64,000 nt of DNA from Oceanospirillaceae bacterium (GTDB lineage: Bacteria; Pseudomonadota; Gammaproteobacteria; Pseudomonadales; Balneatricaceae). This document shows, in pieces, positions 42,639 through 61,060 of the stretch. Every line of letters begins with the position of its first letter. Within the stretch, counting starts at the first letter, position 1. The DNA lies in the NCBI GenBank assembly GCA_013215375.1, contig JABSRB010000020.1:11053-75052 (forward strand), written 5' to 3'. Position numbers and translations under genes: made by a program. The notes under the pieces were generated by a model. The model was given only the letters and a program-made list of their open reading frames with translations. It had not been told where the DNA came from and did not search any database.

Positions 42639-42756
42639 ATCGACCTCATTGTTATGATTCTTTGGTCAGCTTCTCATAACAAAACGATAATTAATTTGCA
42701 TTTAACGAACACTATTTGATAAATTGCGAACACACAGTCTACAAACAACAATAACT

Positions 42757-43731
42757 ATGCCTTTATTTTCTCCCAATAACAGCACTCTTGACGTCAGTAT
42801 CTTACTGCTACCCGAGTCTTCGCTAATGTCTTTAGCTTGCAGCTTAGATACTATGCGAGCGGCAAATCGCATCGCCACCACTAAACTTTTTCGTTGGAAA
42901 ATATTGAGCATCGATGGGTTACCAGTACATCTTTCATGTGGCCAAGTCATTCACCCTGATGCTGACTTCAACAGCCAGCATAAAGGCGATTTACTCATTT
43001 GCATTGCTGCATTTCATCATCAAAAGCATATGCCTGAGCAGCAGTTACAGTTATTTAAACGCAGAGTTCGCGAGTACCCTTATTTAGGCTCGGTGGAATC
43101 AGGCAGCTGGATACTTGCCAGAGCCGGGCTATTAAAAGGCTTGCGGGCAACCACCCACTGGGAAGATTTAGAGGATTTCAGAAATCAATTTAGCAACATC
43201 CAAGTACAACCGGATCGCTATGTGATTGATGGACGAGTTTTTACCACAGGGGGAGCCTCGCCGACATTTGATTTGTTTTTGCACCTGATTAGAACCCGAT
43301 TTGGCCACGCACTAGCATTAGAAGTAGCTAGTGTCTTTATTTACGATGGCACGCATCAGGCACAAACTCCGCAGCCAGTTGTATCCCTAGGATTTTTACA
43401 ACAGCAATCACCCAGTGTTAGCGCCGCGATTAAACTCATGGGTGAACATATTGACGAGCCGTTATCTATCCCAGATATCGCAAATCAGCTACAGCTGTCT
43501 AGACGTTCCTTAGAAAAGCAATTTAGCAGCCAGCTAAGCATTAGCCCACAACGTTATTACAAGAGGATGCGCATGCAAATCGCCAAGCGATTAGTGGTTG
43601 ATTCACATAATAGCTTGCAAGAGATAGCGCTACGGACAGGATTTAGCTCGCTTGCAGTATTTTCTAGGGAATTTAAACTGAGCTTTGGGAGTAGCCCTAG
43701 TCATTTTAGAAAAAAACACACTACAAATTAA
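42757..43731 (+). CDS. cdhR: GlxA-family AraC regulator, divergent from cdhC (CdhR-like)
   Basis: DJ-1-like N-domain plus AraC HTH (LQEIALRTGFSSLAVFSREFK). ATG at 42757 preferred over the TTG at 42724. Confidence 0.8.
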   Translation: MPLFSPNNSTLDVSILLLPESSLMSLACSLDTMRAANRIATTKLFRWKILSIDGLPVHLSCGQVIHPDADFNSQHKGDLLICIAAFHHQKHMPEQQLQLFKRRVREYPYLGSVESGSWILARAGLLKGLRATTHWEDLEDFRNQFSNIQVQPDRYVIDGRVFTTGGASPTFDLFLHLIRTRFGHALALEVASVFIYDGTHQAQTPQPVVSLGFLQQQSPSVSAAIKLMGEHIDEPLSIPDIANQLQLSRRSLEKQFSSQLSISPQRYYKRMRMQIAKRLVVDSHNSLQEIALRTGFSSLAVFSREFKLSFGSSPSHFRKKHTTN

Positions 43732-44148: not shown

Positions 44149-46893
44149 TCAGCTTACAGCCGCTGACATCAACTTATTAAGCTCTGCAACTACTCTCTCT
44201 CTTTCATTACTCTCATTCGTCGCTAAACGAAGCAAAGGCAGTGACTGCTTCTCTAAAATACTATCTTTACACTTGTCTCTCTTACTCTGCTTCTCATTCA
44301 TTGCATGAAATGAATAACCATCAACTTCAATTGCTAATACTGGCTGCTTATCAAGTTTGTTGAACAGCAAAAAATCAACATGACTATATGTATGATTGGC
44401 AAACTTACGCTGCTCAGGGTCCAGCCTTGAGAAATCATTCACGAATAGATGTAAGGGGTAATCTCTATAGTAATAAAATGAGCGGTACAACTCCAAATCA
44501 AGAATTTCATCTAGCAGTGTTGCCATTAAGTTTTCAGAGGGATATTTCGATTTATCGTTCACTTTACTTCTAAATGCATTTAATACTGTCGAATACTCCT
44601 TATACAAACAATCAAAAATGGAAATCGTTTTACTCTCGATAATACAAGGCGCTAATGTCTGGTATTCAATATGGCGGAGTAAATCACCAATATTAGAGCC
44701 TTGATTCTTCATTACGTTAGGCGAGGTAACCATCACAAATCTATTTTTAGCTCTAGAGACAGCAACATTTAATAAATTAGGCTTATCAATATATTTCTTA
44801 AGCTCATTCGCTGCAGTACTAAATATAATGCACTCTTTCTCTCTTCCTTGGAACTTATGCACGGTATCAGCTACTAGGCCAGCTGTAGTAATACGCTTTG
44901 CTGCTTCATCCGCCTGCGCTCTATAAGGCGAAATAAAACCGATGTTATCACTCGATGTTAGTTTAAGCTCCTCTGTTAATATTTCGTTATTAATGACGTC
45001 TATTTCTCTGACATTGAAATAACCGTTTCCTGTTTTGGGTTTGCGTGCATGATTTCCTTTTACCGTTTTAACAATTTTAAACGGATCTTCTTTACCAATC
45101 GTCATAACGATCAATTGACCGTTGTAATACTTTTGATTACAGAAATCTATAATTCTTGGATGACATCTATAATGCTCTTTTAGCAACGTATTTGGGATAG
45201 CTGGAAACAAGCAGATAAGCGATGATAAAAGGCTTTCTTGAAAATAGCTGTACCCTGCAGGAATACTAAACTTTGCATCAATTGAACTATTTATTTTGCT
45301 GTCAGGTATATGCGGTAATTGCTGCATATCACCGACGACAATAATATTTTTGGTACTAGACATCGTTAAAAATCCTGCTATCAAATTAACTTGTGATGCC
45401 TCATCAACAATCAGGTAATCAAATAAAGCTGCTTGATTTTTATTATTGATGATGGAGTCGGTTGTGCTCAAGACAACCGGAAAGCGCTTTAAAAAATCAT
45501 CAAAATTCTGCTTGTAATTTTTTTGAGTAAATTCAATATCCCTATGCGCCTGATATTTATCAGCAATAAAATCCTTAAATATTAAAATTGAAGATTCAGT
45601 TAGTCTCTTTAGTAGTCTATCAAAGTCATCGCTGGCTAATGATTGCTCTATAGCAGTGGTTTCATCTAATAATTCATTAGACCTTGTTTGATAATACTCG
45701 CTGATAACGCCTTTGAAAATATCATTATTCAATGATTGGAAATCACTAAATTTAAAAATTCGATATTTATATAACCACTTAAATTTCGTTTGAAAGCTTA
45801 AGTTTTCATTTTGTGATTGGTGCATAAAATCAGCCATGAAACGCAAAATATGAGGAGCCTTCCATCTATTAAAGAAAGAAAGCCCTTTCATATTGATGGG
45901 CAAAATATCAAAATGCTTATCGAAATACTTTCTCTCTAATTGCAATCGACTATAGGCTTCTTTAACAATTGCCAGTTGATTATTATGTTCCAATAATCGA
46001 GTAATTCGCTCACTGATATCCTTTAGCTCTGCTTTCAGATCTGCCAATAACTCGCGTGACAAACTCCACTTCGAAAGTTCTGGTAATTTGTACTCTGATT
46101 CAAAAAACGCTTGCTGGCGCTCTGAGCTACCCAAACTAGCGGCAATAAGGCCAATTCCCTCTTTCTCTAATTTTTCGTAAACATTAGCTACTGCAGAATT
46201 ATTACCAGCAACCACAGCAACGCTTTTTCCTTGCATAACTAAATTGGTAATAATATTAAGAATGGTCTGGGTTTTACCGGTCCCTGGTGGGCCTTGAATA
46301 AGGCTTATTTGGCTTTCTAATGCGTTAAAAACAGCTTGACGCTGGGAGGGATTAATACCGAAAGGGAACAATGGCACATCACAAAGCAGCTCGCGCTTAG
46401 ATACATCACCAGTGACTAATGCATGACCAACAGATTCAGGCTGAATGTAGCCTAGCTTATCTTTGTAATATCTAGATAAATAAGCCATTTTGGGGTTAGC
46501 CTCATCAGATAAGCGGGCTAATTCAAAATAATATTCAACTATTTTTTTAGTATCTGCTCGCTCTGTTAAATCAGTTAACAATTCAATATCAGTGATTTTT
46601 TCCAACTGTGTTGTAGATTCAGAAAATAAGCGTACATAACTACCGAACGAGATAGCAGCATCCCACTTAGCGATACTTTTACCCTTAATACGTACTAGGG
46701 CACCCTCTAATTCAAAATTGCGCGGCTGATCAAAGAACTGAACTTTAGTTTTCCCGTATCTAAAATCATTTGCTGAATTTTTAAAAGCAACTATATAATA
46801 GTCACCACTTGGGGTAATAGAACTTATAGAACGTGTCTTATCAACCCACCCACTTCCCTGTAGTGTTCTGACTAAATATTTCTTTTCATCCAT
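44149..46893 (-). CDS. SF1 (Upf1/DNA2-like, COG1112-type) helicase with unknown N-domain and C-terminal DUF2726-type PD-(D/E)xK nuclease domain
   Basis: Helicase motifs: GPPGTGKT (Walker A), LIVDEASQ, VVGDMQQLP, HYRCHPRIIDF, FQGREKECIIFS, LNVAVSRAKNRF. The C-terminal VDFLLFNK..PVLAIEVDGYSFH resembles DUF2726. The gene is AT-rich and starts 31 nt after the hsdR stop. Confidence 0.8.
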   Translation of the reverse strand: MDEKKYLVRTLQGSGWVDKTRSISSITPSGDYYIVAFKNSANDFRYGKTKVQFFDQPRNFELEGALVRIKGKSIAKWDAAISFGSYVRLFSESTTQLEKITDIELLTDLTERADTKKIVEYYFELARLSDEANPKMAYLSRYYKDKLGYIQPESVGHALVTGDVSKRELLCDVPLFPFGINPSQRQAVFNALESQISLIQGPPGTGKTQTILNIITNLVMQGKSVAVVAGNNSAVANVYEKLEKEGIGLIAASLGSSERQQAFFESEYKLPELSKWSLSRELLADLKAELKDISERITRLLEHNNQLAIVKEAYSRLQLERKYFDKHFDILPINMKGLSFFNRWKAPHILRFMADFMHQSQNENLSFQTKFKWLYKYRIFKFSDFQSLNNDIFKGVISEYYQTRSNELLDETTAIEQSLASDDFDRLLKRLTESSILIFKDFIADKYQAHRDIEFTQKNYKQNFDDFLKRFPVVLSTTDSIINNKNQAALFDYLIVDEASQVNLIAGFLTMSSTKNIIVVGDMQQLPHIPDSKINSSIDAKFSIPAGYSYFQESLLSSLICLFPAIPNTLLKEHYRCHPRIIDFCNQKYYNGQLIVMTIGKEDPFKIVKTVKGNHARKPKTGNGYFNVREIDVINNEILTEELKLTSSDNIGFISPYRAQADEAAKRITTAGLVADTVHKFQGREKECIIFSTAANELKKYIDKPNLLNVAVSRAKNRFVMVTSPNVMKNQGSNIGDLLRHIEYQTLAPCIIESKTISIFDCLYKEYSTVLNAFRSKVNDKSKYPSENLMATLLDEILDLELYRSFYYYRDYPLHLFVNDFSRLDPEQRKFANHTYSHVDFLLFNKLDKQPVLAIEVDGYSFHAMNEKQSKRDKCKDSILEKQSLPLLRLATNESNERERVVAELNKLMSAAVS

Positions 46894-46924
46894 GATTCGC
46901 TGCTATTCAGATATCAATGATTAA

Positions 46925-49900
46925 TTATTTTTTCAACAAATCAAAGATGGTTTTTACAAATTCTGCTGCTCTACTCGGGTCAGAAAGCAATTGCATCATC
47001 TGATTTTGCTGTGCTTCACTGCTACTTAAAATGGCATCATCAATCGCTTTGGGAAAATCACCCAACATTGCTTGCTCTGCCGTATTGCTGGCAAGCTGCT
47101 GCATCACTAAAACATTCTCTTTCACTTTATCTCGAATGCTATAGGCATAACTCACTAAATCGCTCTCTGTTAGCTCATCGGTGATAAACACTTCATTTAA
47201 ACGATTGATCAACTGCGAGAGCATTTCTTCTTTGCGATCCTTAGGTGCAGCACTACCAACACCTTCACCTGGATCAAGTGTATATTCAGCTTCATCTTCT
47301 TGCAGTTTCAAATGTTGCTGTTTAATTTTTGACAAACGGTAGTGGCTTAGCTCAACATTGCTTAAGTCGATGTCGTCCTCATCAAGCAAGCTTTCACGTA
47401 ACATTGGACGCAAGTGCCTCGCGTATAAACTCAGCTTCTCTAAAGCTTTGTCATCGTAATCCACTATTTGCGACATAAACTCATAAAAGCGCACAAAAGA
47501 GCCCAAGTCTTTTTTAAAGATCTCTAAGGTATCTTTCTCTTTTTTGCATTCTTTAAAGCTGTTCTCGGCGTTTGCTATCAATACCGCATCATTGGTGCGT
47601 TTAGTACGCTCAAACATTTCCCTCGCTTGCTTGTACGCCTCTATTGCCAATTTGTAACGCCCAGTCCAACGCTCTACCGCGGGTTTACAAATATTGGAGA
47701 TGGCCGCATTGCTTTTGTTCTTAACAAAAAAGGCCGTACAAAACTGCTCGACTTCATGGCCCTTATAAATACTCGTTGCATTGAGTTTCTCCAACAAATC
47801 ATAAATAAGGTTAGGGTCTGAGACATCCGTGAGCGCCGCCGTTTGAAAGTAAGGTTGAAAGGCCTCGAGAATATCGGCGCTATCATTGAAGAAATCCAAC
47901 ACAAAAGTACCTGTTTGCGCTTTACCCGGGAAGGTACGATTTAACCGTGATAAGGTCTGCACACATTCAACCCCGCCTAACTTTTTATCAACGTACATCG
48001 CGCACAGTTTGGGCTGGTCAAAACCTGTCTGGAATTTATTCGCCACCAGCATCACTTGATAATCATCACTATCGAACGCCTTGCGCAAATCGCGCCCCTT
48101 CAGATTAGGATTCATATTCATTTCGGTGAACTTTTCATTAATGATCCCCGCACTATTTGGGTCTTTATCGCTGAATTCTACTTCACCTGAAAAGGCCACC
48201 ATCGCATGCAGTTTCTGATAGCCTTGCTCATGAATATATTTATCAAAAGCTAACTTATAACGCACTGCTTCTTTGCGTGAGCTAGTAACGACCATCGCCT
48301 TAGCCTGACCGCCAAGTAGCCCCATCACGTTATCTTTAAAGTGCTCGATGATCACTTGTACTTTTTGACTGATATTGTAATCGTGCAATCGCACCCATTG
48401 GTTGAGTTTTACCTTGGCTTTCTTGCTTTCAACCTCTTCATCACTGCCCTTGATTTTCATCGCCAAATTGTAGGCAACTTTATAATTGGTGTAGTTTTGC
48501 AGCACATCCAAAATAAAGCCTTCTTCAATCGCCTGACGCATACTGTACACATGATAAGCTTGTGGTTTATTAGTCTTAGAAGGCTGTTCTTTAGGCTTAG
48601 GTAAGCGCCCAAATAGCTCAAGGGTTTTGGTTTTAGGCGTTGCAGTAAAGGCCAAATAACTTAAATTACTGGATGCGCGGCGCGAAGCCACTGCCGCATC
48701 TAAAATATCATCGGTACTCAGGTCTTCATCAGCTCCCTTACTGTCAATCATTAACACTTCTTTGAGCTGTCTTGCAGTGCTGCCCGTCTGCGAGCTGTGT
48801 GCTTCATCGGCAATCACTACATAGTTGCGCTCTTTCAAGCTAACACTATTTTCGATCGCTTTTAATACATAGGGAAAGGTCTGAATCGTCACAATAATAA
48901 TCGGCTGCGAATTTTCTAAGGCACTGGCTAACTTCTCTGATTTAGAGCCATCACCTTCATCGCGGTTAATACGCCCTACTACACCGTCCACTGAGGTAAA
49001 CTGCGAGATAGTCTCTTGCAGCTGATCATCTAATACCGTTCTGTCGGTGACAACAATCACCGAATCAAATAACTTTTCACCACCAGCGCTATAGAGTGAT
49101 GAGAGCTGATGCGCACACCAAGCGATAGAATTAGACTTACCAGAACCGGCACTGTGTTGAATAAGATACTTTTGACCCGGCCCCTCACTGCGCGCGGCAC
49201 TCACCAGCTTGTTCACAACATCCCATTGATGATAGCGCGGGAAGATTAAGGTCTCTTTTTTCGACTTTCGCCCCTCCCAGTCCTCTTTTTCTTCTATTTG
49301 TAAATGCACAAAACGAGCCAGAATATTGAGCAAGTTATCGGGTTGTAATACTTCATTGTAAAGATAATCCGTGGCGTATTGATTAACATCTGCTGGTACA
49401 TCATTACCCGCACCGCCCTCTTTAGTGCCTTTATTAAAAGGCAAAAAGAAAGTATCGCTACCTTGCAACCGAGTCGCCATATACACTTCATACTGACTCA
49501 CCGCAAAATGCACCAACGCACCGCGCTTGAAAGTAAGTAATGGCTCTGGCTTTTTAGTCGCAGGATCTATCGCCAAGCGGGTGGTTTTATACTGCTTAAT
49601 CGCATTTTCAACCGACTGCTTGAACTCTGACTTTAGCTCTAAAGTGGCCACCGGCAAGCCATTGACAAACAGTACCAAATCGATACGCCACGCCTTAGCT
49701 TTTTTCCCCGTCGCCGCAAGCTCTTCCTCACTCGCCCAAGGGCTATACACAAGTTCCGGCACTACCCGTAAACGGTTCTTTTTATAGCGCGCTAAGGTAT
49801 CAGGGTTTAAATCGTGCTCAGGCTTAAATTGGCACAAGCTAAAACGCGTACCGCGATCACGTATCTCATGGCGCAACACCCCTAAAGTACCGAAAGTGCG

Positions 49901-50182
49901 CAGCGCTTTGTTGGCGGCATTAGGATCAGCTTTATTCAGCTGCACTGCGACGCGCTCTAGGAATTTTTCTTCGGTATACTCTTTATTATTTTCTTTAGGG
50001 GGGTAAAGCGCACAGAATTTTTGCCACTGCTGCGCTTGAGTGTCTTTGACAAAACCGATGACATCTTCTACATATAAAGCCAGTTCGCGGTTATAATTTT
50101 CAGGCTTACCTAACAGCCAGCCGTTGGCGATTAGCTGGCGAATCATATCATTTTGAAACGTTAACTCGTTTGCCTTACTCAT
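46925..50182 (-). CDS. hsdR: Type I restriction enzyme R subunit
   Basis: 1085 aa. N-terminal PD-(D/E)xK motif (RIDLVLFVNGLPVATLELK), Walker A (SAGSGKS), DEAH box (IADEAHSSQ), FTATP, and a long helical C-terminus. Confidence 0.93.
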   Translation of the reverse strand: MSKANELTFQNDMIRQLIANGWLLGKPENYNRELALYVEDVIGFVKDTQAQQWQKFCALYPPKENNKEYTEEKFLERVAVQLNKADPNAANKALRTFGTLGVLRHEIRDRGTRFSLCQFKPEHDLNPDTLARYKKNRLRVVPELVYSPWASEEELAATGKKAKAWRIDLVLFVNGLPVATLELKSEFKQSVENAIKQYKTTRLAIDPATKKPEPLLTFKRGALVHFAVSQYEVYMATRLQGSDTFFLPFNKGTKEGGAGNDVPADVNQYATDYLYNEVLQPDNLLNILARFVHLQIEEKEDWEGRKSKKETLIFPRYHQWDVVNKLVSAARSEGPGQKYLIQHSAGSGKSNSIAWCAHQLSSLYSAGGEKLFDSVIVVTDRTVLDDQLQETISQFTSVDGVVGRINRDEGDGSKSEKLASALENSQPIIIVTIQTFPYVLKAIENSVSLKERNYVVIADEAHSSQTGSTARQLKEVLMIDSKGADEDLSTDDILDAAVASRRASSNLSYLAFTATPKTKTLELFGRLPKPKEQPSKTNKPQAYHVYSMRQAIEEGFILDVLQNYTNYKVAYNLAMKIKGSDEEVESKKAKVKLNQWVRLHDYNISQKVQVIIEHFKDNVMGLLGGQAKAMVVTSSRKEAVRYKLAFDKYIHEQGYQKLHAMVAFSGEVEFSDKDPNSAGIINEKFTEMNMNPNLKGRDLRKAFDSDDYQVMLVANKFQTGFDQPKLCAMYVDKKLGGVECVQTLSRLNRTFPGKAQTGTFVLDFFNDSADILEAFQPYFQTAALTDVSDPNLIYDLLEKLNATSIYKGHEVEQFCTAFFVKNKSNAAISNICKPAVERWTGRYKLAIEAYKQAREMFERTKRTNDAVLIANAENSFKECKKEKDTLEIFKKDLGSFVRFYEFMSQIVDYDDKALEKLSLYARHLRPMLRESLLDEDDIDLSNVELSHYRLSKIKQQHLKLQEDEAEYTLDPGEGVGSAAPKDRKEEMLSQLINRLNEVFITDELTESDLVSYAYSIRDKVKENVLVMQQLASNTAEQAMLGDFPKAIDDAILSSSEAQQNQMMQLLSDPSRAAEFVKTIFDLLKK

Positions 50183-50193
50183 TAATTAATCCC

Positions 50194-50874
50194 TTAACTA
50201 CTTGATAATATTTTTAAAAACACTTGAAATTGATCATTGTAGAAATAACTCGTGATTGCCATTAACCCAATTAAATATGGCGCTATAATGTCTAGATTCT
50301 CGCGATGTACAATAAAGCTTTCCAGTTGATATTTAGCTTCCAACCTAATCACTTTGAAATAATTTTCCCAGCCCACTTCTATTTCTTCTTCAAAATCTTG
50401 GTGCCTATCACACCAGTAATAGGTGATTTTTCTTACGAATAAAAAAGAGCATTTAAATTGGTAATCCAAGCTAAGTTCTTCATAGTTCATATTTTCAATA
50501 TCAAAACCTTTTGGCTCAAGTTTAGAAATAAGACCAGAAACACTTGAATCATAAGGATGAACATCTAAGAAAAACTTATCTTTTAATAAACGGTTAGTCC
50601 AGAGCTTGTAGAGTTTTTGATGGTACTGTCCCGCATAATTGTAATAGCGCAACATTAAAAACATAATTGCCAATACAAGTAATACAGAAATGCCTTCTTG
50701 ATTTTCAAACTTAAGTTTCAAAATAAAGGTATTAGCTTCTTCTACCTTCGCCCCTGAAAATGAAAGCGCTAATAATATCAACGAAGTAACCATTAACTGA
50801 TTACGTTTAGACTTAAGCCCTTCATCTTTATCTATTTGCTCGGTAATCGTTAACTTTTCAACTTGATCGGCCAT
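50194..50874 (-). CDS. Hypothetical 3-TM membrane protein
   Basis: 226 aa. Predicted TM helices: LMVTSLILLALSFSG, ISVLLVLAIMFLMLRYY, IIAPYLIGLMAITSYFY. Very AT-rich. The stop lies 11 nt upstream of the hsdR ATG. I recognise no family. Confidence 0.55.
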   Translation of the reverse strand: MADQVEKLTITEQIDKDEGLKSKRNQLMVTSLILLALSFSGAKVEEANTFILKLKFENQEGISVLLVLAIMFLMLRYYNYAGQYHQKLYKLWTNRLLKDKFFLDVHPYDSSVSGLISKLEPKGFDIENMNYEELSLDYQFKCSFLFVRKITYYWCDRHQDFEEEIEVGWENYFKVIRLEAKYQLESFIVHRENLDIIAPYLIGLMAITSYFYNDQFQVFLKILSSS

Positions 50875-50946
50875 TTACAAACTCTCATATAAAGCTGAAT
50901 ATATTTTAATTTAAACGATGGGCTAAACACTAAAGTTCAACCTAGC

Positions 50947-51246
50947 TTAGAGCTTACTCAAAGCTTCCACCTTTGCTAAATAGGAACGTTCAACCTCCCG
51001 CGCTCCCTCAGCTTGAACTGTTGCATGTTTTGCAACAGTTGCCTCGCGCTGCAATTCATCCTCGGAAAAAATAGCTTTTAGGTGCTTAGAAATGACCGAT
51101 TTATCACGGCCAAATAAATCTGCTATTTGCATGAGCGATGACCAGAGCGTTTCATCAATGAAGCGACATTCCAAACGCAAGCGCTGCTCTGAGTTTTGAT
51201 AGAGCAGTATCTGACCTTTTTCGGGATCTTGGGTATTTAAACTCAA
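50947..51246 (-). pseudogene. rhuM: N-terminal fragment of a RhuM-family gene
   Basis: The 99-aa ORF matches the RhuM N-terminal DNA-binding part (ILLYQNSE..LWSSLMQIADLFGRDKSVISKHLKAIFSEDEL..ATVAKHATV). It ends where full-length (~330 aa) RhuM proteins continue. Confidence 0.6.
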
Positions 51247-51307
51247 CGTTTAATCCTCGTAATGGCATGAGTAATATCAGTGACATATCTACGCATAATG
51301 GTTGTCA

Positions 51308-52264
51308 TTAACTACGCTCATAACTCTTTATAATAAGCTCTTTAGTCTTTTCCAAATCAGCAATAGTACGCACGTTAACTTCAAAGTTACCTGTACCCCA
51401 GTGTCCAATATTACTGACATCTCGGCTAAACGCACTCCCTTCAGCTTTGTCACCGGGTAGTTTTAAGTAGATTTGCAACTTAGGATCTTTTTTACCTGTC
51501 ATCATCACAATAGAGGCGAAATTTTTGATACGTTTGAATGCGGTGTACAATTTTAGATCTTTACGTTGCACTTCATCTCCTAACTGCTCGGTAAAACGGC
51601 ATAGATCTTCAAATATGGAGACTAGTTCAGGTGATGCGTCAGCAAAGCGCTCAGCCTGTGATTTATCTGACCGCGATTTATCCACGCTATTTTTACTGCT
51701 GGCGATGCTGTTAATATCTGCGGGAGGAATTGTGGGTTTGCTTTTAGCTTGGTACACCATGCTTTGTGCATTCACTAACTCTAATAACAATAAGTCACCA
51801 CCAAAATAACGATATCGCATTAGCTCAATATTACGGTCAATCTGCTGTATAGCGTGCTCATCAAATTTATTATAATCCGCCGCAATGCAGATCAAGCGGG
51901 CACCCATCCACTCAATAGTATCAGCAGTCTCATTACCAAGTTTCTCCATCACCAGCAATTGAAACTCTGCTTGATGGTCTAATAACCAATCTAGGTAATA
52001 CAATCCCTGAGTAATGACATTGTCACTTTTGGCGCGTTTATATTCGATGATTACCGGGCAGCCATTTTCATCTAAACCCAACGAGTCGATGCGGCCTTTA
52101 TGAGTTTTACCGGTAGCATATTCTGTCGCCAAAAACTGTACACCTAAAAACGCTAGCATGTTAGATTCGATCTGTTTTTGTAGATCGCTTTCTAACGCGG
52201 CAAAGCTGCCGGTCAATTCTGTGAAGACCTCACCGGCTTGAGAAAATAGTTTGATATCACTCAT
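51308..52264 (-). CDS. NucS/DUF91-like PD-(D/E)xK endonuclease domain + DUF5655-like C-domain protein
   Basis: GRIDSLGLDENGCPVIIEYKR is a D..ExK motif in a NucS-like context. The C-terminal LKLYTAFKRIKNFASIV pattern resembles DUF5655. ATGA overlap with the hsdS stop. Confidence 0.65.
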   Translation of the reverse strand: MSDIKLFSQAGEVFTELTGSFAALESDLQKQIESNMLAFLGVQFLATEYATGKTHKGRIDSLGLDENGCPVIIEYKRAKSDNVITQGLYYLDWLLDHQAEFQLLVMEKLGNETADTIEWMGARLICIAADYNKFDEHAIQQIDRNIELMRYRYFGGDLLLLELVNAQSMVYQAKSKPTIPPADINSIASSKNSVDKSRSDKSQAERFADASPELVSIFEDLCRFTEQLGDEVQRKDLKLYTAFKRIKNFASIVMMTGKKDPKLQIYLKLPGDKAEGSAFSRDVSNIGHWGTGNFEVNVRTIADLEKTKELIIKSYERS

Positions 52265-53619
52265 ACGGAGGCTTCCTTGTGGTTTAATGGAACTTGGGGT
52301 AGCTCGTCTTTTGGGTTAAAGAGTCTAACGTCAATTTTGCCAGTAACTGCTGCGGAGATTAGGGCGGTTCGACGTTCTTTTAACAGCTCTACCGCAACTA
52401 GACACTCACTTAATATATTGTCGAACTTATCCCCCTGCCTTTTAATCTCATTTATGATTTCTTTTTGTTCTTCTAGGCCTGGAGGGTGAGGTATAGGTAA
52501 TTCCCCAAGAATTTGCATATTCAGCCCATCCATCGTAGAGCCCTGCGCGGAAAACAAGAGTTGGGACTGACTAACATCACAAAGAATCGAAGCTTTGACA
52601 AATTGAGGTAGTATTTTATTTTCCATAACCTTATATTTAACCAGTCGTGGATTAATAATTCCGCGCTCAATGCTTTTAGGGACAACCGCAACTTTCCCTA
52701 CAGTACCCATAACACTTATTAACACATCATTTGGGTACACCTCATATCTCCGCATTTCTTTAAACTTGGCCTCAGAAATATAATAATCACCAATTGACAA
52801 GTCATCAGCGATAACTTGTTGCTGACCATACACCCGAATCCCAGAGGCTGTATACATTGATTTTGTTAACGATGAGCCGTATGGTCCAGCTGCACTTTCA
52901 GAAACTAAATATTTGAATCTAGCAACTTCCCAATGTTCCGGCACTTCACCTAACCACTCAACACCAGAGTCGCGCATCGGTACATTAGCGTTAATACCTT
53001 TAGTGACAGCATGACTAATGACAGCTTGGCGTTTTTCTTTTAGCAGCTTGATCAACTGTTGTTGTTTTTCAATCAGGGTGTCGATTTTGGTGGTTTCGTG
53101 GTCGAGGAAACTAACAATCGAATCCAATTCACCTTCAGGGGGAAGTGCATAAACTGTTTTTAAAATATCAATACTTGAAAGGTGTTTAACAGTTGTAAAA
53201 TAAGTTAAGTCATTTACCACCTTCATATTAAAAGGAGATACATAATAGAGAAATTTTTGCAGGTTATAATCTTCAGCCCTAATACAAGCAACTCGTTGAT
53301 TTAGTGCAGCCTCACCGCCAGACCATAGAGCAACGTTGAAATCACCATCCATTCCAATTAATACGTCACCATTATTAATTAACGCCATGGATGGTATCTC
53401 GCCAACAACACCAACTTCCGTCTTAGAGGTTCTTATATCTCTAATTCTTACTAGCGGTGTGCCTTTTCCTGCTTCAAATTTTTTTGAATCAAACGGATAG
53501 CCATTTATCAAACGCGCTGTTTCTTTAATTCGTTTTCGCTCCCAATGTTTTGGGATTTCCCCCAACCACTCAACCCCAGAATCCTTATACTCAGGATATC
53601 CCACATACTTCGCACTCAT
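52261..53619 (-). CDS. hsdS: Type I R-M specificity subunit
   Basis: Two target-recognition halves, each beginning DSGVEWLGE[IV]P[KE]HWE. Each is followed by a conserved helical spacer (LIEKQQQLIKLLKEKRQAVISHAVTKGI and VELLKERRTALISAAVTGKIDV). Confidence 0.92.
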   Translation of the reverse strand: MSAKYVGYPEYKDSGVEWLGEIPKHWERKRIKETARLINGYPFDSKKFEAGKGTPLVRIRDIRTSKTEVGVVGEIPSMALINNGDVLIGMDGDFNVALWSGGEAALNQRVACIRAEDYNLQKFLYYVSPFNMKVVNDLTYFTTVKHLSSIDILKTVYALPPEGELDSIVSFLDHETTKIDTLIEKQQQLIKLLKEKRQAVISHAVTKGINANVPMRDSGVEWLGEVPEHWEVARFKYLVSESAAGPYGSSLTKSMYTASGIRVYGQQQVIADDLSIGDYYISEAKFKEMRRYEVYPNDVLISVMGTVGKVAVVPKSIERGIINPRLVKYKVMENKILPQFVKASILCDVSQSQLLFSAQGSTMDGLNMQILGELPIPHPPGLEEQKEIINEIKRQGDKFDNILSECLVAVELLKERRTALISAAVTGKIDVRLFNPKDELPQVPLNHKEASV

Positions 53620-54674
53620 AAATCACCACCCAATTCCTGCTCGATATCTGCAATACTGGGCAGTACCGATTTCAAACGTTCAGGGAGTGACTGTGTCAAC
53701 TGATACTCTGAGACACCCATAGGTTTTTGCATACCACTGAGTGCATATTCAGCGACCATCTTGTCTTTGTATTTGCACAATAAAATACCAATCGTCGGCG
53801 CATCACCGCTTGCACAGAGTTGCTCATCCACCGCTTTGATATAGAAGTTTAATTTACCGGCATGCTCTGGCTCAAAATCACCAAGTTTAAGTTCAATCAC
53901 CACATAACAATGCAGCCTGGCGTGATAGAAAAGTAAATCGATGTAAAAATCACGCTCACCCACTTTTAACGGGTATTGCCTGCCCATATAGGCGAAGCCT
54001 GCGCCGAGCTCTAATAAAAATTGGGTAATGTGATCGATTAAGCTCTGCTCTAACTCACGTTCACTAAAATCTTTACTTAAGGTTAAAAAATCAAACACAT
54101 AAGGGTCTTTCAAAGTTTGTTGCGCAAGGTCTGATTGCACTTGTGGGAGAGTGTTCGAGAAGTTACTGATCGCCTTGCCTTCACGGGCATATAAACCACT
54201 GTCGATTTGGTACGCCAATACACTGCGACTCCAGCCGTGCTCTAGCGTATTGCTCACATAATAAAGCGCTTCTGGTCTGTTTTGGCATTTATTGATGATG
54301 TGTTGATTGTGCCCCCAGGGGATGGCTTGTAATTGCGCAACAGCTTGTTGCGAAATTGCGGGCTCTGCACTCCAGTATGAATACCACTGTCTGATGAGAC
54401 CTAAATTCCGCTCAGAAAAGCCTTTTATAGTAGGGAACTCGGCGCTCAAATCTTTGCTAAGTTGTTTAAGAAAACCTGTCCCCCAAGTTGATGCTTGCTG
54501 GCGTTCAACAATGTCTTGGCCCAATTCCCAGTAGAATGCCAATAACTGACTATTCACTTGTACTGCAGCTTTAAGCTGAGTGCGCTTAAAGCGCTCTTTT
54601 AGAGTGGTTAACCACTTATTGTAGCTGCTGTCAGGTTTTGCTGATTCCAGAGGTAAGCTGATGTCATCTACCAT
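53616..54674 (-). CDS. DUF1016/YhcG-family PD-(D/E)xK nuclease-domain protein
   Basis: FYIDLLFYHARLHCYVVIELKLGDF is the core motif. The N-terminal region is DUF1016-like. ATGA overlap with hsdS and TAATG overlap with hsdM. Confidence 0.75.
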   Translation of the reverse strand: MVDDISLPLESAKPDSSYNKWLTTLKERFKRTQLKAAVQVNSQLLAFYWELGQDIVERQQASTWGTGFLKQLSKDLSAEFPTIKGFSERNLGLIRQWYSYWSAEPAISQQAVAQLQAIPWGHNQHIINKCQNRPEALYYVSNTLEHGWSRSVLAYQIDSGLYAREGKAISNFSNTLPQVQSDLAQQTLKDPYVFDFLTLSKDFSERELEQSLIDHITQFLLELGAGFAYMGRQYPLKVGERDFYIDLLFYHARLHCYVVIELKLGDFEPEHAGKLNFYIKAVDEQLCASGDAPTIGILLCKYKDKMVAEYALSGMQKPMGVSEYQLTQSLPERLKSVLPSIADIEQELGGDL

Positions 54675-57028
54675 TAGCTATGCACCTCTTGCAGTAGCTG
54701 CATGATTTGCGCGCTCACCGCATCCAAATCCGCATCAATATCCACTAAATCTCTAGGCGGTTGATACTGATAAAAATGGCGATTAAACGGAATTTCATAG
54801 CCGACAATACCCACTTGCTGATCTTTCTCATCTATTTTACTGGCATCTATCCAAGCATCCGGCACATGGGGCTGTACTTCTTTTTTAAAGTAGGCTTCGT
54901 TGAGATCGTTAACGGTTTGCGCAGGGTCAAGGGCAACGTTTTCGTTATCTCGTAAATCACCATCCGCTTTGTATTCAACGGTATTGCCTAACTCGTGATC
55001 TTCTCCAGCGAACAAACCGTACAATGGATTAGCTTCGGTATTCTTGTGGAGTTTCTTAATCACCTTTTGCGCTGCTGGATTTTTCCAGCTTACCGCTGCG
55101 CTGATTTGTTTCTTCTCTTTGGTATCCAGCGTGATGTTCTGAGCTTTACAGGCAACTTTCAGCGCCGCTTCATAGCTATTCATGTCATCGCATTGTGCAA
55201 TGCCCATCCCCTGTGGAGCAACTTGCTGGAGCAGTCTCGCTTTATCAAACATCTGCTGCTGCACAGCCCAAGTTTTGCTATCGAGCAATTCTTTAATTTT
55301 CGCTTCTTTGACTTCACTGAAATGACTCTTCAGATGTTTGCGAATATCGGCTGCATGTGTTGCCAATGCACTTTGGTAAACACTATCGCCATAAGTCTCA
55401 TACAACCATTTCATCGGTGCATTTAACGGTTTAGGTGCAAAGCGTAACTCTGCAATGCGCTCATCACTAAACTGATAGCTCTCGCGTAATGGTCGCTCGA
55501 TAGTGATGCGACGATAACCGAACTCATGGGTGTCGAATATCTTACTGGCGAAGGTTTTAGGTGCTTCAACCTTGGGATTAGCCGCTTGCCTTCCACGGCT
55601 GCTTTTGGCTTCAGCGGGCCTGTTGAGCCCCAATTTATCAAGGGTAATGGCATCAACCACTTCAAACGCACCAAAGCTGCGGGTGATGATAGCGATATCC
55701 TTAGCACTCATTTCTTTGCGCTTGCTACCTAAAGATTTACGCATTTTACCGCACAGATTAACGCCGTTAATCAATTGCACTTTACCTTTGCGCTCATCGG
55801 TTTTTTTATTCGACAGCACCCACACATAGGTCGCTATACCGGTGTTGTAAAACATATCAGTGGGCAGTGCGACGATGGTTTCTAAAAGATCCGCTTCTAA
55901 AATGTAGCGGCGAATTTCTGACTCGCCAGACCCCGCGCCACCAGTAAATAGCGGTGAGCCGTTGAGGATAATACCAATACGACCGCCCCCTTCAGATGAG
56001 TCTCTAAGCTTACTGATCAAGTGCAACAGGAATAATAACGAGCCGTCAGAGACACGTGGTAATCCCGGTCCAAAGCGCCCTTCGAAACCCTTTAGCGTTT
56101 TCTCATCTTTGATGGTTTGCTCTATTTTTTTCCAATCAACACCAAAGGGCGGGTTAGATAACATGTAATCAAATTTGTCAGCATAGAGCTGATCATTAGA
56201 TAAAGTGTTACCGAGCTTAATATTGGTGACGTCTTGTCCTTTGATCAACATATCAGCTTTACAGATTGCATAACTTTCAGGATTTAGCTCTTGGCCATAA
56301 GCGCGAATAGTGGCTTGCGGGTTCAGCTCATGCACATACTCCATCCCCGAAGAGAGAAAGCCCCCAGTACCTGCGGTAGGGTCATAAATAGTGCGAATAA
56401 TACCCGCCTTGGTCAGCGCGTCATCATCTTCCATAAACACTAAAGATGTGGTTAGCCTTACTATATCCCTTGGGGTAAAGTGCTCACCTGCGGTTTCGTT
56501 TGATCCCTCGGCAAAGCGACGTATCAACTCCTCAAAAGTTAAGCCCATGTCATGGTTGGAGATCGCTTTGGGACTTAAATCTGTTGTACGTACCTTTTGC
56601 ACCACTTTATAGAGCAAATCAGCATCGTTCAGCTGGCCAATAAACTCCGAGAAATTAAAATATTCAAATATTTGACGCGCATCTTTAGAAAAACCTTGGA
56701 TATAACTTTCAAGGTTCGACTTAATATCCGCCGCACCCAACTTAGACAGATCCATTTTCGAGGTATTAAAAAACCTTAAACCGCCAGTGGCACGTAACAG
56801 CATTTTTTCTTGCGCTTCTTCAGGAAGATTGAGCTTCTGCACCTTTTCATTCTCAGCAAGAACCTGAACTTTGGTCTCTTCTAACACCCCTTCTAATCGA
56901 CGTAATAAGGTAAAGGGCAGAATAATGCGTCCGTATTGAGATTGCTTAAAATCACCACGTAAAAGATCGGCAATAGACCAGCAAAAAGCGGCAAGATTAT
57001 TGGGCGTTGGCTGGTGGTCAAAAGTCAT
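54674..57028 (-). CDS. hsdM: Type I R-M N6-adenine DNA methyltransferase subunit (long form)
   Basis: HsdM N-domain, AdoMet motif I ([10 protein letters not shown]) and motif IV (NPPFG). About 300 extra C-terminal residues compared with ~500-aa HsdM proteins. Confidence 0.92.
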
Positions 57029-57684: not shown

Positions 57685-59928
57685 ATGATGAAACAGGCCT
57701 GCTTCCCATTCCCAACACTCTTTGAGGTAATCAGATACGTCACTCGTATTCTGGATCTAAAAGAGTCTAATAAAAATTTAGACCAAAGAGCATTTGAGCG
57801 TGTGTTTGATCCGGAAGAATTAAATAAGGCCGTTACTACACTCTCTTTGTTAGCCTCTAAGTCAATCGGTGCTGATTTCAGCAACATAATTATAAAACAT
57901 CTTTCAAGCTCGCTCGATAAGTATGCAAAGCTTATCGCTATTACTGCTGCAGATGGGGTTAGTCGATCAAGTTTAATGCCCCATTTACTTACTACCTTTA
58001 TCAAAGATCAAATCGTACTTATTGTGAGGGATATCCATAGACTCTACGGCGGCCCAGACCCAACAATGTTGTTCAGTTTCAACTCCAGAGCGGTAGCAAC
58101 TATTTTAAATTGGATAGAAAATAATGAAAAAGGCTGGCCCTTATACTTAAGCGCATTAAGCAAGGAACAGAAAGATCGCCTATCCGCCTGGAGCCGAGGG
58201 GACGATATTCCCTCAGCGCAATCGATCTATCTTTTGCAAAGTAGCTATCAAGGCCCTAGGCCTGAAGCGATAAACTGGCAACGAGTAAGAGCACTCCTTT
58301 TTCTTGCGCGAGCAATTGATTTCTCAACAAGGAGCAATCAACTTGAGGAGGTAGTCGATGACATTAGGGCTGCTTTATGGGGTGCAGAAACGTCAGCAAA
58401 CCTGAAAGACGAAATCGCGAAACTCCAGCTTAGCTTGCAAGACAACATGCAGGATTTGATCCCCTCTATTGCTCTTTTACAGCATGAATTAATGCGTACA
58501 AACGTTAAAAAAGACCCAATGATGCTTATGCAGCATATTAAATCGGTTAAGAACGGCTTACTAAACCAAGATAAAAATACCACAATGAAGTATTGGCTAG
58601 ATTGGCATGAAGCAAGATGGCACGTTTTTTCAGGAAACTTAAAGCAGGCCAACCAGCTTTATAAAAAAGCCTTCGAAGACTCCTTATTTAGGGCAGGTAT
58701 TAACCAAAGGGAGATAATTAATGAATCTCTAGCAGTGGCAGCACGCTTAGATAAACCTGACAAGGTCTTCTTAAAGCATTTGAAATGGATGCTCATCAAC
58801 CTACAGTACGATATCCCCTCTGTTACCAGAGCTAAGTCATCAAATGTTTTTAATGACAGTGTAGAAAACTGGGAAATAGACCTTTGGAAATCTAGCTTTA
58901 TTCACACTTTCCCGAAAGCAGGCTGGTTCAAAAACACTAGATACAACTTGGCTGCCGACAGGATAGGCCCTCTAATTGACACTTCTATAGAGCAGATAAA
59001 ACCAGATTACAGACATCCTAATCGCAAGATAAAGATTGGCGATACATGGGAGAAATCCATGCCCCAACTTATATGGTTCTTGATGGTTGAAAATTTTGAG
59101 GTGGTTGAAAAACTCATAAAAAAAGGCGCTAATGTCAACGTGACATCATATGCAGGTGACACACCGATACTCATTGCTCTTGAATCTATGAATGTTATAA
59201 GTGTGCCGTTTAAGTCTTTAGATGATCGTTTTTTTCGACTAATAAGTAGCCACGAACATTCACCAGAAATCATTAATAGTCGTACACAAAAAACGCGACT
59301 ATTGCCGATCATTTCAGCGATTGAAACAGGACAATTGAATATTGTTGAAAAAGTATTAAGCCTAGGCGCTAACCCTAATTCCCGAGGCAAGACAGATGAG
59401 CAAACGGCCTTAAGTGTATGTCTTAAGTACATTGCTCAGATCAAAGATCCCACGAGAGCTAAAAAAAACCAAGAATCCATAGCAATCACCCCAGAAGCTC
59501 TAGATTCTATTCGACGATACGGCGCTGGGTTAACTGGTCACACTCTAGAACAGCAAATGAATACTTTGGCCCGTACTAACAATAACCAAGCATTCAAACA
59601 TATAAGATCTACATTAATAGACATCATTGTTGAAAGAGCTAAAAGTAAAATGCATCTCACCACAATGCGAGCCATAGCAAAATTACTTATCGAGGCAGGA
59701 GCTAACGTCAATGCTGAAAACGTTAGCCCGGTAAAAGGGTACACACCATTAATGCATGCAGCCGAAATTGATGAAATAGATCTTTTTAAACTCATGCTTA
59801 AAAAAGGCGGCGATCCTGTAAAATCCTACATTGACATAAAAACTCAAAGAGATGTTAACTGCAGGGACATTTCAACATACTTCGAATCAACACAAGTGAT
59901 GCATGAGCTTCAGACAATACAGCGCTAA
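57685..59928 (+). CDS. Uncharacterised 747-aa protein: unknown helical N-region with XRE-HTH-like and TPR-like segments, C-terminal ankyrin repeats
   Basis: AAGGA SD. ANK repeats are visible at VVEKLIKKGANVNV..GDTPILIA, IVEKVLSLGANPNSRG..TALSV and IAKLLIEAGANVNAEN..GYTPLMHAAE..LFKLMLKKGGDP. The segment RLSAWSRGDDIPSAQSIYLL resembles the XRE-HTH helix 3 region. AT-rich. Confidence 0.7.
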   Translation: MMKQACFPFPTLFEVIRYVTRILDLKESNKNLDQRAFERVFDPEELNKAVTTLSLLASKSIGADFSNIIIKHLSSSLDKYAKLIAITAADGVSRSSLMPHLLTTFIKDQIVLIVRDIHRLYGGPDPTMLFSFNSRAVATILNWIENNEKGWPLYLSALSKEQKDRLSAWSRGDDIPSAQSIYLLQSSYQGPRPEAINWQRVRALLFLARAIDFSTRSNQLEEVVDDIRAALWGAETSANLKDEIAKLQLSLQDNMQDLIPSIALLQHELMRTNVKKDPMMLMQHIKSVKNGLLNQDKNTTMKYWLDWHEARWHVFSGNLKQANQLYKKAFEDSLFRAGINQREIINESLAVAARLDKPDKVFLKHLKWMLINLQYDIPSVTRAKSSNVFNDSVENWEIDLWKSSFIHTFPKAGWFKNTRYNLAADRIGPLIDTSIEQIKPDYRHPNRKIKIGDTWEKSMPQLIWFLMVENFEVVEKLIKKGANVNVTSYAGDTPILIALESMNVISVPFKSLDDRFFRLISSHEHSPEIINSRTQKTRLLPIISAIETGQLNIVEKVLSLGANPNSRGKTDEQTALSVCLKYIAQIKDPTRAKKNQESIAITPEALDSIRRYGAGLTGHTLEQQMNTLARTNNNQAFKHIRSTLIDIIVERAKSKMHLTTMRAIAKLLIEAGANVNAENVSPVKGYTPLMHAAEIDEIDLFKLMLKKGGDPVKSYIDIKTQRDVNCRDISTYFESTQVMHELQTIQR

Positions 59929-60478: not shown

Positions 60479-61060
60479 CTAACTTGAACCTTTTTCTTGA
60501 TTAAACACCAACAACTGCGGAAAAAACTGCAAAAACACCTCATCAAGCTGCTCGTAATGCAACTTAATATCCTCAATACTCCCTGCAAATTGATTACGAA
60601 AACGAATCCGCATGGCGATGCGATCTAACGCAAAACCTATCCCTTCGACATGCTCGTAACTGGAAAACCAATCGTTTTTCACTACTGATGCCATAACCAC
60701 TTGCATTTTCTCTGGCATCAAATGACTACTTTGGGTAAGTAGCTGATAGGTCTGGGACTTAAAATCAACAAAGGGAACATCACTGTAGAGGTGCCAATTT
60801 TTAATCAGAAAATGATCAAACAATACATCCAGTGCAATACCTGCAAAGCGTCGTCGCTGCGCACTAAAACAACCTTTAGCTTGTAACACTAACGGGTGAG
60901 CATCGGTATAACGGTCAATTTCCCTGTGGTTAAGCAAACCCACATAGATGCCCTCTGGCAATGCCCTCTCATCTACACCTTTGCAAAAATCACCCAATAA
61001 ATTCCCCACCAGCGACTCACTATTGGCTTGTGCGAGAAAGCAATGGGCTAAATAATTCAC
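60479..61060 (-). CDS. acpH: Acyl carrier protein phosphodiesterase
   Basis: 193 aa. MNYLAHCFLA...GNLLGDFCKG...HREIDRYTD matches the AcpH N-terminus. Confidence 0.85.
   Translation of the reverse strand: MNYLAHCFLAQANSESLVGNLLGDFCKGVDERALPEGIYVGLLNHREIDRYTDAHPLVLQAKGCFSAQRRRFAGIALDVLFDHFLIKNWHLYSDVPFVDFKSQTYQLLTQSSHLMPEKMQVVMASVVKNDWFSSYEHVEGIGFALDRIAMRIRFRNQFAGSIEDIKLHYEQLDEVFLQFFPQLLVFNQEKGSS

Follow-up and report, generated by a model that had tools for sequence, protein, structure and literature searches.

Fusions of a helicase with a nuclease are recurrent in bacterial immunity, as in Hhe, ProA, Nhi, Hna, Mokosh and CoCoNuT, and the triggering and the targets of the Upf1-like motors are still largely obscure. 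Nhi of staphylococci is a single protein that acts in phage defence and carries its nuclease at the N-terminus, together with a superfamily 1 (SF1) helicase. Mokosh exists as type I (MkoA and MkoB) and type II (MkoC), in which a COG1112/Upf1-like helicase core is combined with a nuclease of the PLD type. Hhe has been described as a defence gene that on its own encodes both helicase and nuclease domains; the candidates for its trigger map to the DNA-metabolism cluster of phage T7, and one Bas63 gene is toxic only in the presence of Hhe (bioRxiv 10.1101/2024.10.10.617714). ProA ("anti-phage protein ProA"), a protein of ~1900-2100 amino acids (aa), belongs to the same superfamily as Hhe. In CoCoNuT type III-B, the Upf1-like SF1 helicase CnuH has a large helical insertion after Walker A and is directly fused to a Vsr-like PD-(D/E)xK nuclease (Bell et al., eLife 2024, PMC11090510). 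Here we analyzed a gene for a 914-aa helicase-nuclease found in a 64,000-nucleotide (nt) stretch of an Oceanospirillaceae bacterium (GCA_013215375.1, contig JABSRB010000020.1, positions 11,053 to 75,052), hereafter called the window. With moderate confidence we regard its product as a self-contained helicase-nuclease, a compact relative of Hhe and ProA that most likely protects the cell, as one gene acting alone, from phages or other invading DNA.

Results

The gene occupies positions 44149-46893 of the window, stop codon included. An initial annotation of this DNA had reported the 914-aa open reading frame (ORF) at these positions without stating its strand; the ORF list and the translation confirm it and place it on the minus strand, as are all the parts of the gene given below. 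Because hundreds of full-length homologues were detected at E = 0 to 1e-135, a chance ORF is ruled out, and the start codon is supported since the N-terminus MDE... is common to the homologues. The three-part architecture described in the annotation, an unassigned N-domain followed by an Upf1-like helicase and a C-terminal DUF2726 nuclease, was borne out, and all the motifs it had quoted are present: GPPGTGKT, DEASQ, VGDMQQLP, HYRCHP (residues 574-579), FQGREK, VAVSRAK (710-716) and the nuclease core.

The motor is encoded in two segments. RecA-like domain 1A starts at residues 173-255 (46129-46377), where the protein matches AAA_11, AAA_19 and AAA_30, aligns to Upf1, DNA2 and IGHMBP2, and contains the Walker A motif GPPGTGKT (residues 201-208; 46270-46293). 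Between Walker A and motif II lies a variable insertion of ~215 residues (256-470; 45484-46128) in place of Upf1 subdomains 1B/1C, which is probably helical judging from its heptad-like sequence pattern. Domain 1A continues at residues 471-545 (45259-45483) with motifs II and III, namely DEASQ (497-501) and VGDMQQLP (520-527), and RecA-like domain 2A follows at residues 546-730 (44704-45258) with EHYRCHP (573-579), FQGREK (681-686) and NVAVSRAK (709-716), a region with invariant columns that matches AAA_12 and aligns to Sen1 and Upf1. In Pfam, AAA_11 covers residues 180-527 (E 3e-28) and AAA_12 covers residues 552-724 (E 6e-24). The complete set of SF1 motifs (I, II, III and IV-VI) is thus present, and we assign the motor to the Upf1-like SF1B helicases because the nearest solved structures by sequence (phmmer against the PDB) are Nam7/Upf1, DNA2, IGHMBP2 and Sen1, with E-values from 1e-18 to 1e-13.

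Domain 2A is connected to the nuclease by a conserved linker (residues 731-825; 44419-44703) that is helical in the AlphaFold2 model, carries a SIFDCLY motif and is collinear with the corresponding region of Hhe and ProA. The C-terminal residues 826-914 (44152-44418) form a Vsr-like nuclease of the restriction-endonuclease fold according to Pfam, AlphaFold2 and Foldseek, and the sequence VDFLLF...LAIEVDGYSFH corresponds to residues 839-863. Pfam assigned DUF2726 to residues 828-907 with 55.5-57.1 bits against a cut-off of 24.7, and on the same stretch MTES_1575 and DUF559 gave weak matches, that of MTES_1575 being below its cut-off. In the AlphaFold2 model of the C-terminal 187 residues, consisting of the helical linker and the restriction-endonuclease fold, pLDDT, the predicted score of the local distance difference test, is 90-97 over the fold, and Foldseek matched the nuclease to BstEII (prob 1.00), TnsA (0.99) and the Vsr-like homing endonuclease I-Bth0305I (0.99; template modelling (TM) score 0.66 on target). 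DUF2726 has been placed together with Vsr and DUF559 (PMC3424549), and the Foldseek matches agree with this placement.

The N-domain (residues 1-172; 46378-46893) was modelled by AlphaFold2 with a pLDDT of 91.3 as two small beta-barrels, whose strands lie at residues 7-54 and 65-107, followed by three helices (residues 113-161). The top Foldseek matches were all tandem SH3/Tudor/Agenet/KOW pairs, and because none of them was significant (E >= 0.01, TM ~0.2), only the fold class, tandem SH3/Tudor-like barrels, can be stated for this domain. Neither residues 1-172 nor the 215-residue insertion matched any family in Pfam, NCBIfam or PADLOC, and residues 1-178 had no match in PHROGs either.

We then compared the family members in an alignment of 36 sequences (mean column identity 53%) and in a second set of 46 sequences. 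Within the 36-member alignment, Walker A from G201 to T208 and D497, E498, S500, Q501, V520, G521, D522 and Q525 in motifs II and III are invariant, as are S754, S758, F760, D761, L763 and Y764 in the linker. In the nuclease core, H838, D840, E856-V-D858-G859, H863, Q869, R872-D873, K876 and R889 are invariant among the 36 members; in the 46-sequence set D840, E856, D858, G859, D873, K876 and R889 remained invariant and V857, H863, Q869 and R872 were nearly so, while H838 was not. Since the helicase motifs and the nuclease core are invariant across the family, both enzymatic parts are predicted to be active. The mean pairwise identity is 0.53-0.69 for the motor, 0.48 for the linker and 0.55 for the nuclease, and 0.26-0.30 for the N-domain and 0.31 for the insertion. 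This uneven conservation matches the usual pattern of a variable sensing part placed on a conserved effector.

The relatives of the motor also bear on the question of whether the enzyme would act on RNA, in which case transcripts of the phage or the host would be followed by the Upf1-like motor and cut by the Vsr-like domain, a scheme put forward for CoCoNuT. The closest solved relatives include the RNA helicases Upf1/Nam7, Sen1 and IGHMBP2, and RNA has been predicted to be the target of CnuH helicases, among them the type III-B one with its fused Vsr-like nuclease (Bell et al., PMC11090510). However, DNA2 scores equally well, the structural neighbours of the nuclease (BstEII, TnsA and I-Bth0305I) are DNA enzymes, the candidate triggers of Hhe lie in DNA-metabolism genes of T7, and Pfam found no CSD, YTH or SmpB-like RNA-binding module in the protein. 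We therefore consider a defence directed at RNA to be unlikely.

Next we asked how the protein relates to the named defence systems. It matched 17 families in PADLOC, of which MkoC (6e-53) and MkoA (6e-48) were the best and PDC-S37 and Hhe were among the others, in all cases over the helicase part only. With the NCBIfam models it reached 110.4 bits for ProA (NF058533, cut-off 1500 bits), 96 bits for PLuB (cut-off 999) and 90.8 bits for Hhe (NF042953, cut-off 2000 bits). An assignment to any of these systems (MkoA/C, PDC-S37, Hhe, ProA or PLuB) was rejected, as the matches are partial, restricted to the helicase and far below the cut-offs. The profile searches in PADLOC, NCBIfam, Pfam and PHROGs thus left the 914-aa protein unclaimed by any named defence system.

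The relationship to Hhe and ProA became visible when the family profile was compared by hhalign with an Hhe and a ProA protein that both exceed the cut-offs of their models (locus L092, 2529 bits, and locus L095, respectively). Residues 488-914 aligned with residues 1291-1704 of Hhe (Prob 98.5%, E 2e-15), and residues 474-912 aligned with residues 1418-1845 of ProA (Prob 99.0%, E 6e-18), so that the collinearity sets in shortly ahead of motif II, spans RecA2 and the linker and reaches into the nuclease. Because the profile is collinear with both, we regard the family as a compact relative of Hhe and ProA. Like Hhe, the 914-aa protein is a single polypeptide in which an N-terminal accessory domain, a split Upf1-like SF1 motor, a linker and, at the C-terminus, a Vsr-like nuclease of the restriction fold succeed one another; the two also share an insertion after Walker A and a nuclease core of the form EVDGxxxH...RD...K. 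Unlike Hhe, which has ~1800 aa, it lacks DUF4011 and has the tandem beta-barrel N-domain instead, some ~290 residues, as opposed to ~900, separate Walker A from motif II, with ~600 residues of the insertion of Hhe and ProA lacking, and the nuclease is recognised as DUF2726 without reaching the cut-off of MTES_1575. Hhe and ProA both contain DUF4011, a split AAA_11/AAA_12 and MTES_1575, and ProA alone contains DUF3320; the C-half of ProA is collinear with the 914-aa protein, but DUF4011, MTES_1575 and DUF3320 are not found over threshold in the latter. The Hhe model had no match at E <= 1e-50 in the genome from which the window comes.

CnuH of CoCoNuT type III-B, which we compared by its description, shares the Upf1-like SF1 helicase, the directly fused Vsr-like nuclease and a helical insertion after Walker A that is comparable to the 215-residue insertion. 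It differs in its near-invariant association with CnuB/McrB, CnuC/McrC and the coiled-coil protein CnuA and in its N-terminal Sul7s-like winged helix-turn-helix domain (PMC11090510), whereas the N-domain of the 914-aa protein is a tandem beta-barrel. No McrB/McrC-type gene was found by Pfam and PADLOC in the island within the window, and none is linked to the gene in most of the family loci. An McrBC-like pair (AAA_5/DUF2357) lies 3.6 kb from a Clostridium copy, in one of the ~10 contexts inspected. In Hhe, ProA and CnuH alike, an Upf1-like helicase is followed by a Vsr-like nuclease at the C-terminus. These are the closest architectures and had been omitted from the comparison in the initial annotation, so the novelty of architecture that it implied was overstated.

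Its distinction from Mokosh and Nhi, which rested on the PLD nuclease of the former and the N-terminal nuclease of the latter, holds. The Mokosh matches concern only the helicase core, for example residues 570-741 against residues 772-961 of the 1136-residue MkoC, the N-terminal regions being unrelated, and Pfam detected no PLD domain in the 914-aa protein. Mokosh type I was also rejected on the basis of the neighbours, which are hsdR and an AraC-type regulator (Pfam), and of the lack of a conserved partner in 46 loci. Nhi was rejected because the nuclease is C-terminal here, the N-domain is a pair of beta-barrels with no nuclease match, and no Nhi model is among the 17 PADLOC families.

The family is large and widely distributed. 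A word-indexed search retrieved more than 100 proteins that are full-length (900-945 aa) and share this Pfam architecture. Among the matches listed, the closest homologues are 78, 71, 69 and 62% identical and all come from metagenomes; they are followed by Flocculibacter (59%), by Pectobacterium, Xenorhabdus and Alteromonas (~49%) and by Clostridia (~39%). Few members carry a source name, and these names are generic, mostly "AAA domain-containing protein". When 50%-identity representatives were searched exhaustively, 1042 clusters were obtained at E <= 1e-30; each of the top 150 scored above 467 bits, and nearly all of these were matched over most of their length. In a genome scan, 46 loci clearly belonged to the family (>= 360 bits); they are distributed over Bacillota, Bacteroidota, Actinomycetota, Pseudomonadota, Spirochaetota, Campylobacterota and Fibrobacterota. 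The scan also revealed a second and more distant group, composed of ~1000-1030-aa proteins mostly from Clostridia, Lachnospiraceae and Mollicutes; they match residues ~180-890 at 100-170 bits, have a different and longer N-terminal region of ~330 aa, and may represent a sister architecture. In E. coli O157:H7 EDL933 (NZ_CP124741.1, 11486-14166) the member is annotated as a pair of ORFs that overlap, one for a 171-aa "hypothetical protein" and the other for a 722-aa "AAA domain-containing protein", so either the N-domain is encoded separately or the gene is frameshifted. This copy is located in an island rich in insertion sequences (IS), beside ibrA/ibrB-like genes (PAPS reductase and ParB-N).

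Within the lineage of the source organism the gene is sporadic: of 41 related genomes one carries it, and a search of 11 other species of the genus found it in none. Plasmid- or megaplasmid-borne family members occur in Parabacteroides, Bacteroides, E. coli, Ralstonia, Caballeronia and Arthrobacter. With a GC content of 0.36, the gene lies below the adjacent hsdR (0.44) and the window as a whole (0.437). It is an accessory gene of foreign composition that has spread horizontally. A phage origin was rejected, because only one partial match was obtained in 50,697 phage records.

This distribution bears on two other explanations. One is that the protein works in DNA repair or recombination, as a housekeeping or stress helicase-nuclease analogous to Dna2 or AddAB that has nothing to do with immunity. 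The resemblance of the motor to DNA2, the existence of a repair enzyme among the Vsr-family nucleases (PMC3424549) and the housekeeping neighbours of many distant homologues would fit such a role, but a repair factor is hard to reconcile with a gene that is so rare among related genomes, foreign in composition, plasmid-borne in several lineages and differently surrounded from genome to genome, and the fast evolution of the N-domain would be unusual for a core repair factor; we therefore judge this explanation to be very unlikely. The other is that the gene is a weapon or addiction module of mobile elements, acting on plasmids and competing elements or spreading itself in a homing-like manner, with no part in defending the host from phages. 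Single-gene insertion at many unrelated sites with no integrase, copies on plasmids and in IS-rich islands, and the similarity of the nuclease to the homing endonuclease I-Bth0305I and to TnsA are consistent with it. A 914-aa ATP-driven motor is, however, atypical of homing endonucleases, and the near-absence from phage genomes also argues against this explanation, which makes it quite unlikely.

Finally, we examined the neighbourhoods, as the gene lies directly behind a type I restriction-modification (R-M) operon (46925-57028, minus strand; Pfam and PADLOC scans). As the initial annotation had noted, the gene is co-directional with hsdR (46925-50182), starts 31 nt after its stop codon and has the lower GC content. 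A consensus scan of the 31-nt spacer (46894-46924) found nothing that resembles a terminator or a promoter, which makes read-through from the restriction operon likely, and the gene is probably transcribed together with hsdR. This arrangement raises the possibility that the protein is a functional accessory of the type I system, processing ends made by HsdR or extending restriction to modified or single-stranded targets in an R-M-dependent manner, and the operon already holds two embedded defence-candidate genes, PDC-S02 and PDC-S18.

The surveyed loci do not bear this out. All-against-all clustering of 291 neighbours from the 46 loci revealed no conserved partner gene, no cluster being present in more than three loci. 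When the loci were scanned by phmmer with the HsdR and HsdM of the window, single sequences that could miss distant R-M genes, an hsdR-like gene was found within 10 kb in only one of the 46 (a weak match at locus L004) and the hsdM of the window in none. Conserved linkage to hsdR, hsdM or hsdS was thus not observed. The 150 neighbours within two genes represent 174 Pfam families, the commonest being GNAT (5), and N6_Mtase, Methylase_S and HSDR_N are not among the 25 commonest; families of the defence type include ResIII (3), DUF1016/PDC-S02 (2), the Schlafen-type helicase PDC-S01 (2) and mad3 (2).

The closest homologues, at 59-78% identity, have other neighbours. The 78% identical one follows a Helicase_C-DUF3427 protein, the 71% identical one precedes a NERD-UvrD protein, two of ~60% identity are located 15 nt after an Mrr-type nuclease, and the 59% identical one is the last gene in an HNH/CTD1/MComp1/SMC-like island; a Parabacteroides plasmid copy stands after SNF2, N6-methylase and TIR genes. 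Conversely, hsdR homologues of 83-85% identity occur without the helicase-nuclease, and the same downstream slot is filled by Band_7 and DUF3800, by SLATT and a reverse transcriptase, or by DUF4062. Given the differing neighbours of the close homologues and the other cargo behind the hsdR homologues, a role as a type I accessory is unsupported, and the difference in GC content indicates that the helicase-nuclease and hsdR were acquired separately. Of the two alternatives left by the initial annotation, the stand-alone single gene is favoured by the lack of a conserved partner, while the accessory alternative is highly improbable. Read-through from hsdR probably means co-expression by position and not functional dependence. 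The gene fills a variable cargo slot behind a widely conserved type I operon, its linkage to hsdR being an accident of the island, and it behaves as an autonomous module that often lands in defence islands, an association that is descriptive and not statistical.

The island has several further features. In the type I operon, hsdM (54674-57028) and hsdS (52261-53619) are separated by a DUF1016 PD-(D/E)xK protein, PDC-S02/YhcG (53616-54674; PADLOC E 2e-151), and a NucS_C-like protein, PDC-S18/DUF5655 (51308-52264; PADLOC E 3e-131), lies between hsdS and hsdR. Directly upstream of hsdR is a 226-aa ORF (50194-50874) with a GC content of 0.32, the lowest of the island, and with no match in Pfam, PADLOC or NCBIfam; possibly it encodes a membrane protein or represents a further small cargo gene. 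All of these are on the minus strand. Residues ~1004-1084 of HsdR (window 46925-47170) match positions 293-373 of the 380-position PADLOC candidate model PDC-S15 (E 1.7e-8), and this match over the last ~80 residues suggests that the HsdR of the window carries an additional module at its C-terminus. Upstream of close hsdR homologues elsewhere, DUF5655, DUF6361 and two large unassigned proteins are encoded, and at loci L102/L103 (10526-12474) a SLATT_5 protein followed by RVT_1, a defence-type reverse transcriptase module, stands downstream of an 83% identical hsdR. On the plus strand, and divergent from the operon, a 747-aa protein with C-terminal ankyrin repeats (57685-59928; Ank E 5e-13) marks the right end of the low-GC island, before acpH (60479-61060). 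The two genes that flank the island, the AraC-type regulator (42724-43731) and acpH, are on different contigs in species of the same genus, where synteny has been lost, and no empty site was seen among them.

Discussion

Our analysis showed that the 914-aa protein combines an Upf1-like motor with a C-terminal Vsr-like nuclease in the arrangement known from Hhe and ProA. It is very probably a stand-alone helicase-nuclease of their kind, and an anti-phage or anti-mobile-DNA function is plausible but unproven.

How might such an enzyme work? The variable N-domain, perhaps together with the insertion in domain 1A, could recognise an infection cue and so determine specificity, or keep the enzyme auto-inhibited until infection; conceivable cues are a protein of the phage, an intermediate of replication or recombination, or nucleic acid of an unusual kind. 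The T7 and Bas63 findings on Hhe point to sensing of phage replication activity, possibly with abortive infection, which is a hypothesis when transferred to the present protein. Once licensed, the motor would load on single-stranded nucleic acid and, by analogy with other Upf1-like SF1B helicases, translocate in the 5'->3' direction with ATP. The C-terminal nuclease, delivered by the motor, would then nick or degrade the tracked or the displaced strand, and phage replication would be blocked directly or via abortive infection. A more specific proposal is that the family constitutes a widespread and unnamed one-gene immune system distinct from Hhe and ProA, in which the SH3/Tudor-like module and the insertion read a phage-specific cue that licenses the Upf1-type motor to carry the Vsr-like nuclease along phage nucleic acid; we put this forward only tentatively.

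Several points weigh against a role in defence as described here. What the enzyme acts on (DNA or RNA), its polarity and what triggers it are all inferred. The N-domain fold, which would underlie the sensing, is tentative, as it was assigned through the non-significant Foldseek matches. At the more distant loci the neighbours within two genes are mostly housekeeping and few are clearly defence-like, and the Pectobacterium copy stands alone amid housekeeping genes. In addition, our literature search found no characterisation of a helicase-DUF2726 fusion, and the main text of two recent discovery screens, supplements aside, does not mention AAA_11/12, Upf1, Vsr or DUF559.

For the window, the finding means that the gene should be annotated as independent cargo of a defence island rather than as a component of the type I R-M system. 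For the family, the combination of about half the size of Hhe and ProA, a confidently modelled variable N-module, and a distribution over many phyla and plasmids could make it a convenient minimal system for mechanistic work. If these proteins are indeed an unnamed one-gene system, they would offer a minimal and tractable model for how Upf1-like helicase-nuclease immunity, including that of Hhe, ProA and CnuH, is triggered, and an annotation gap would close for members that are now labelled only generically.

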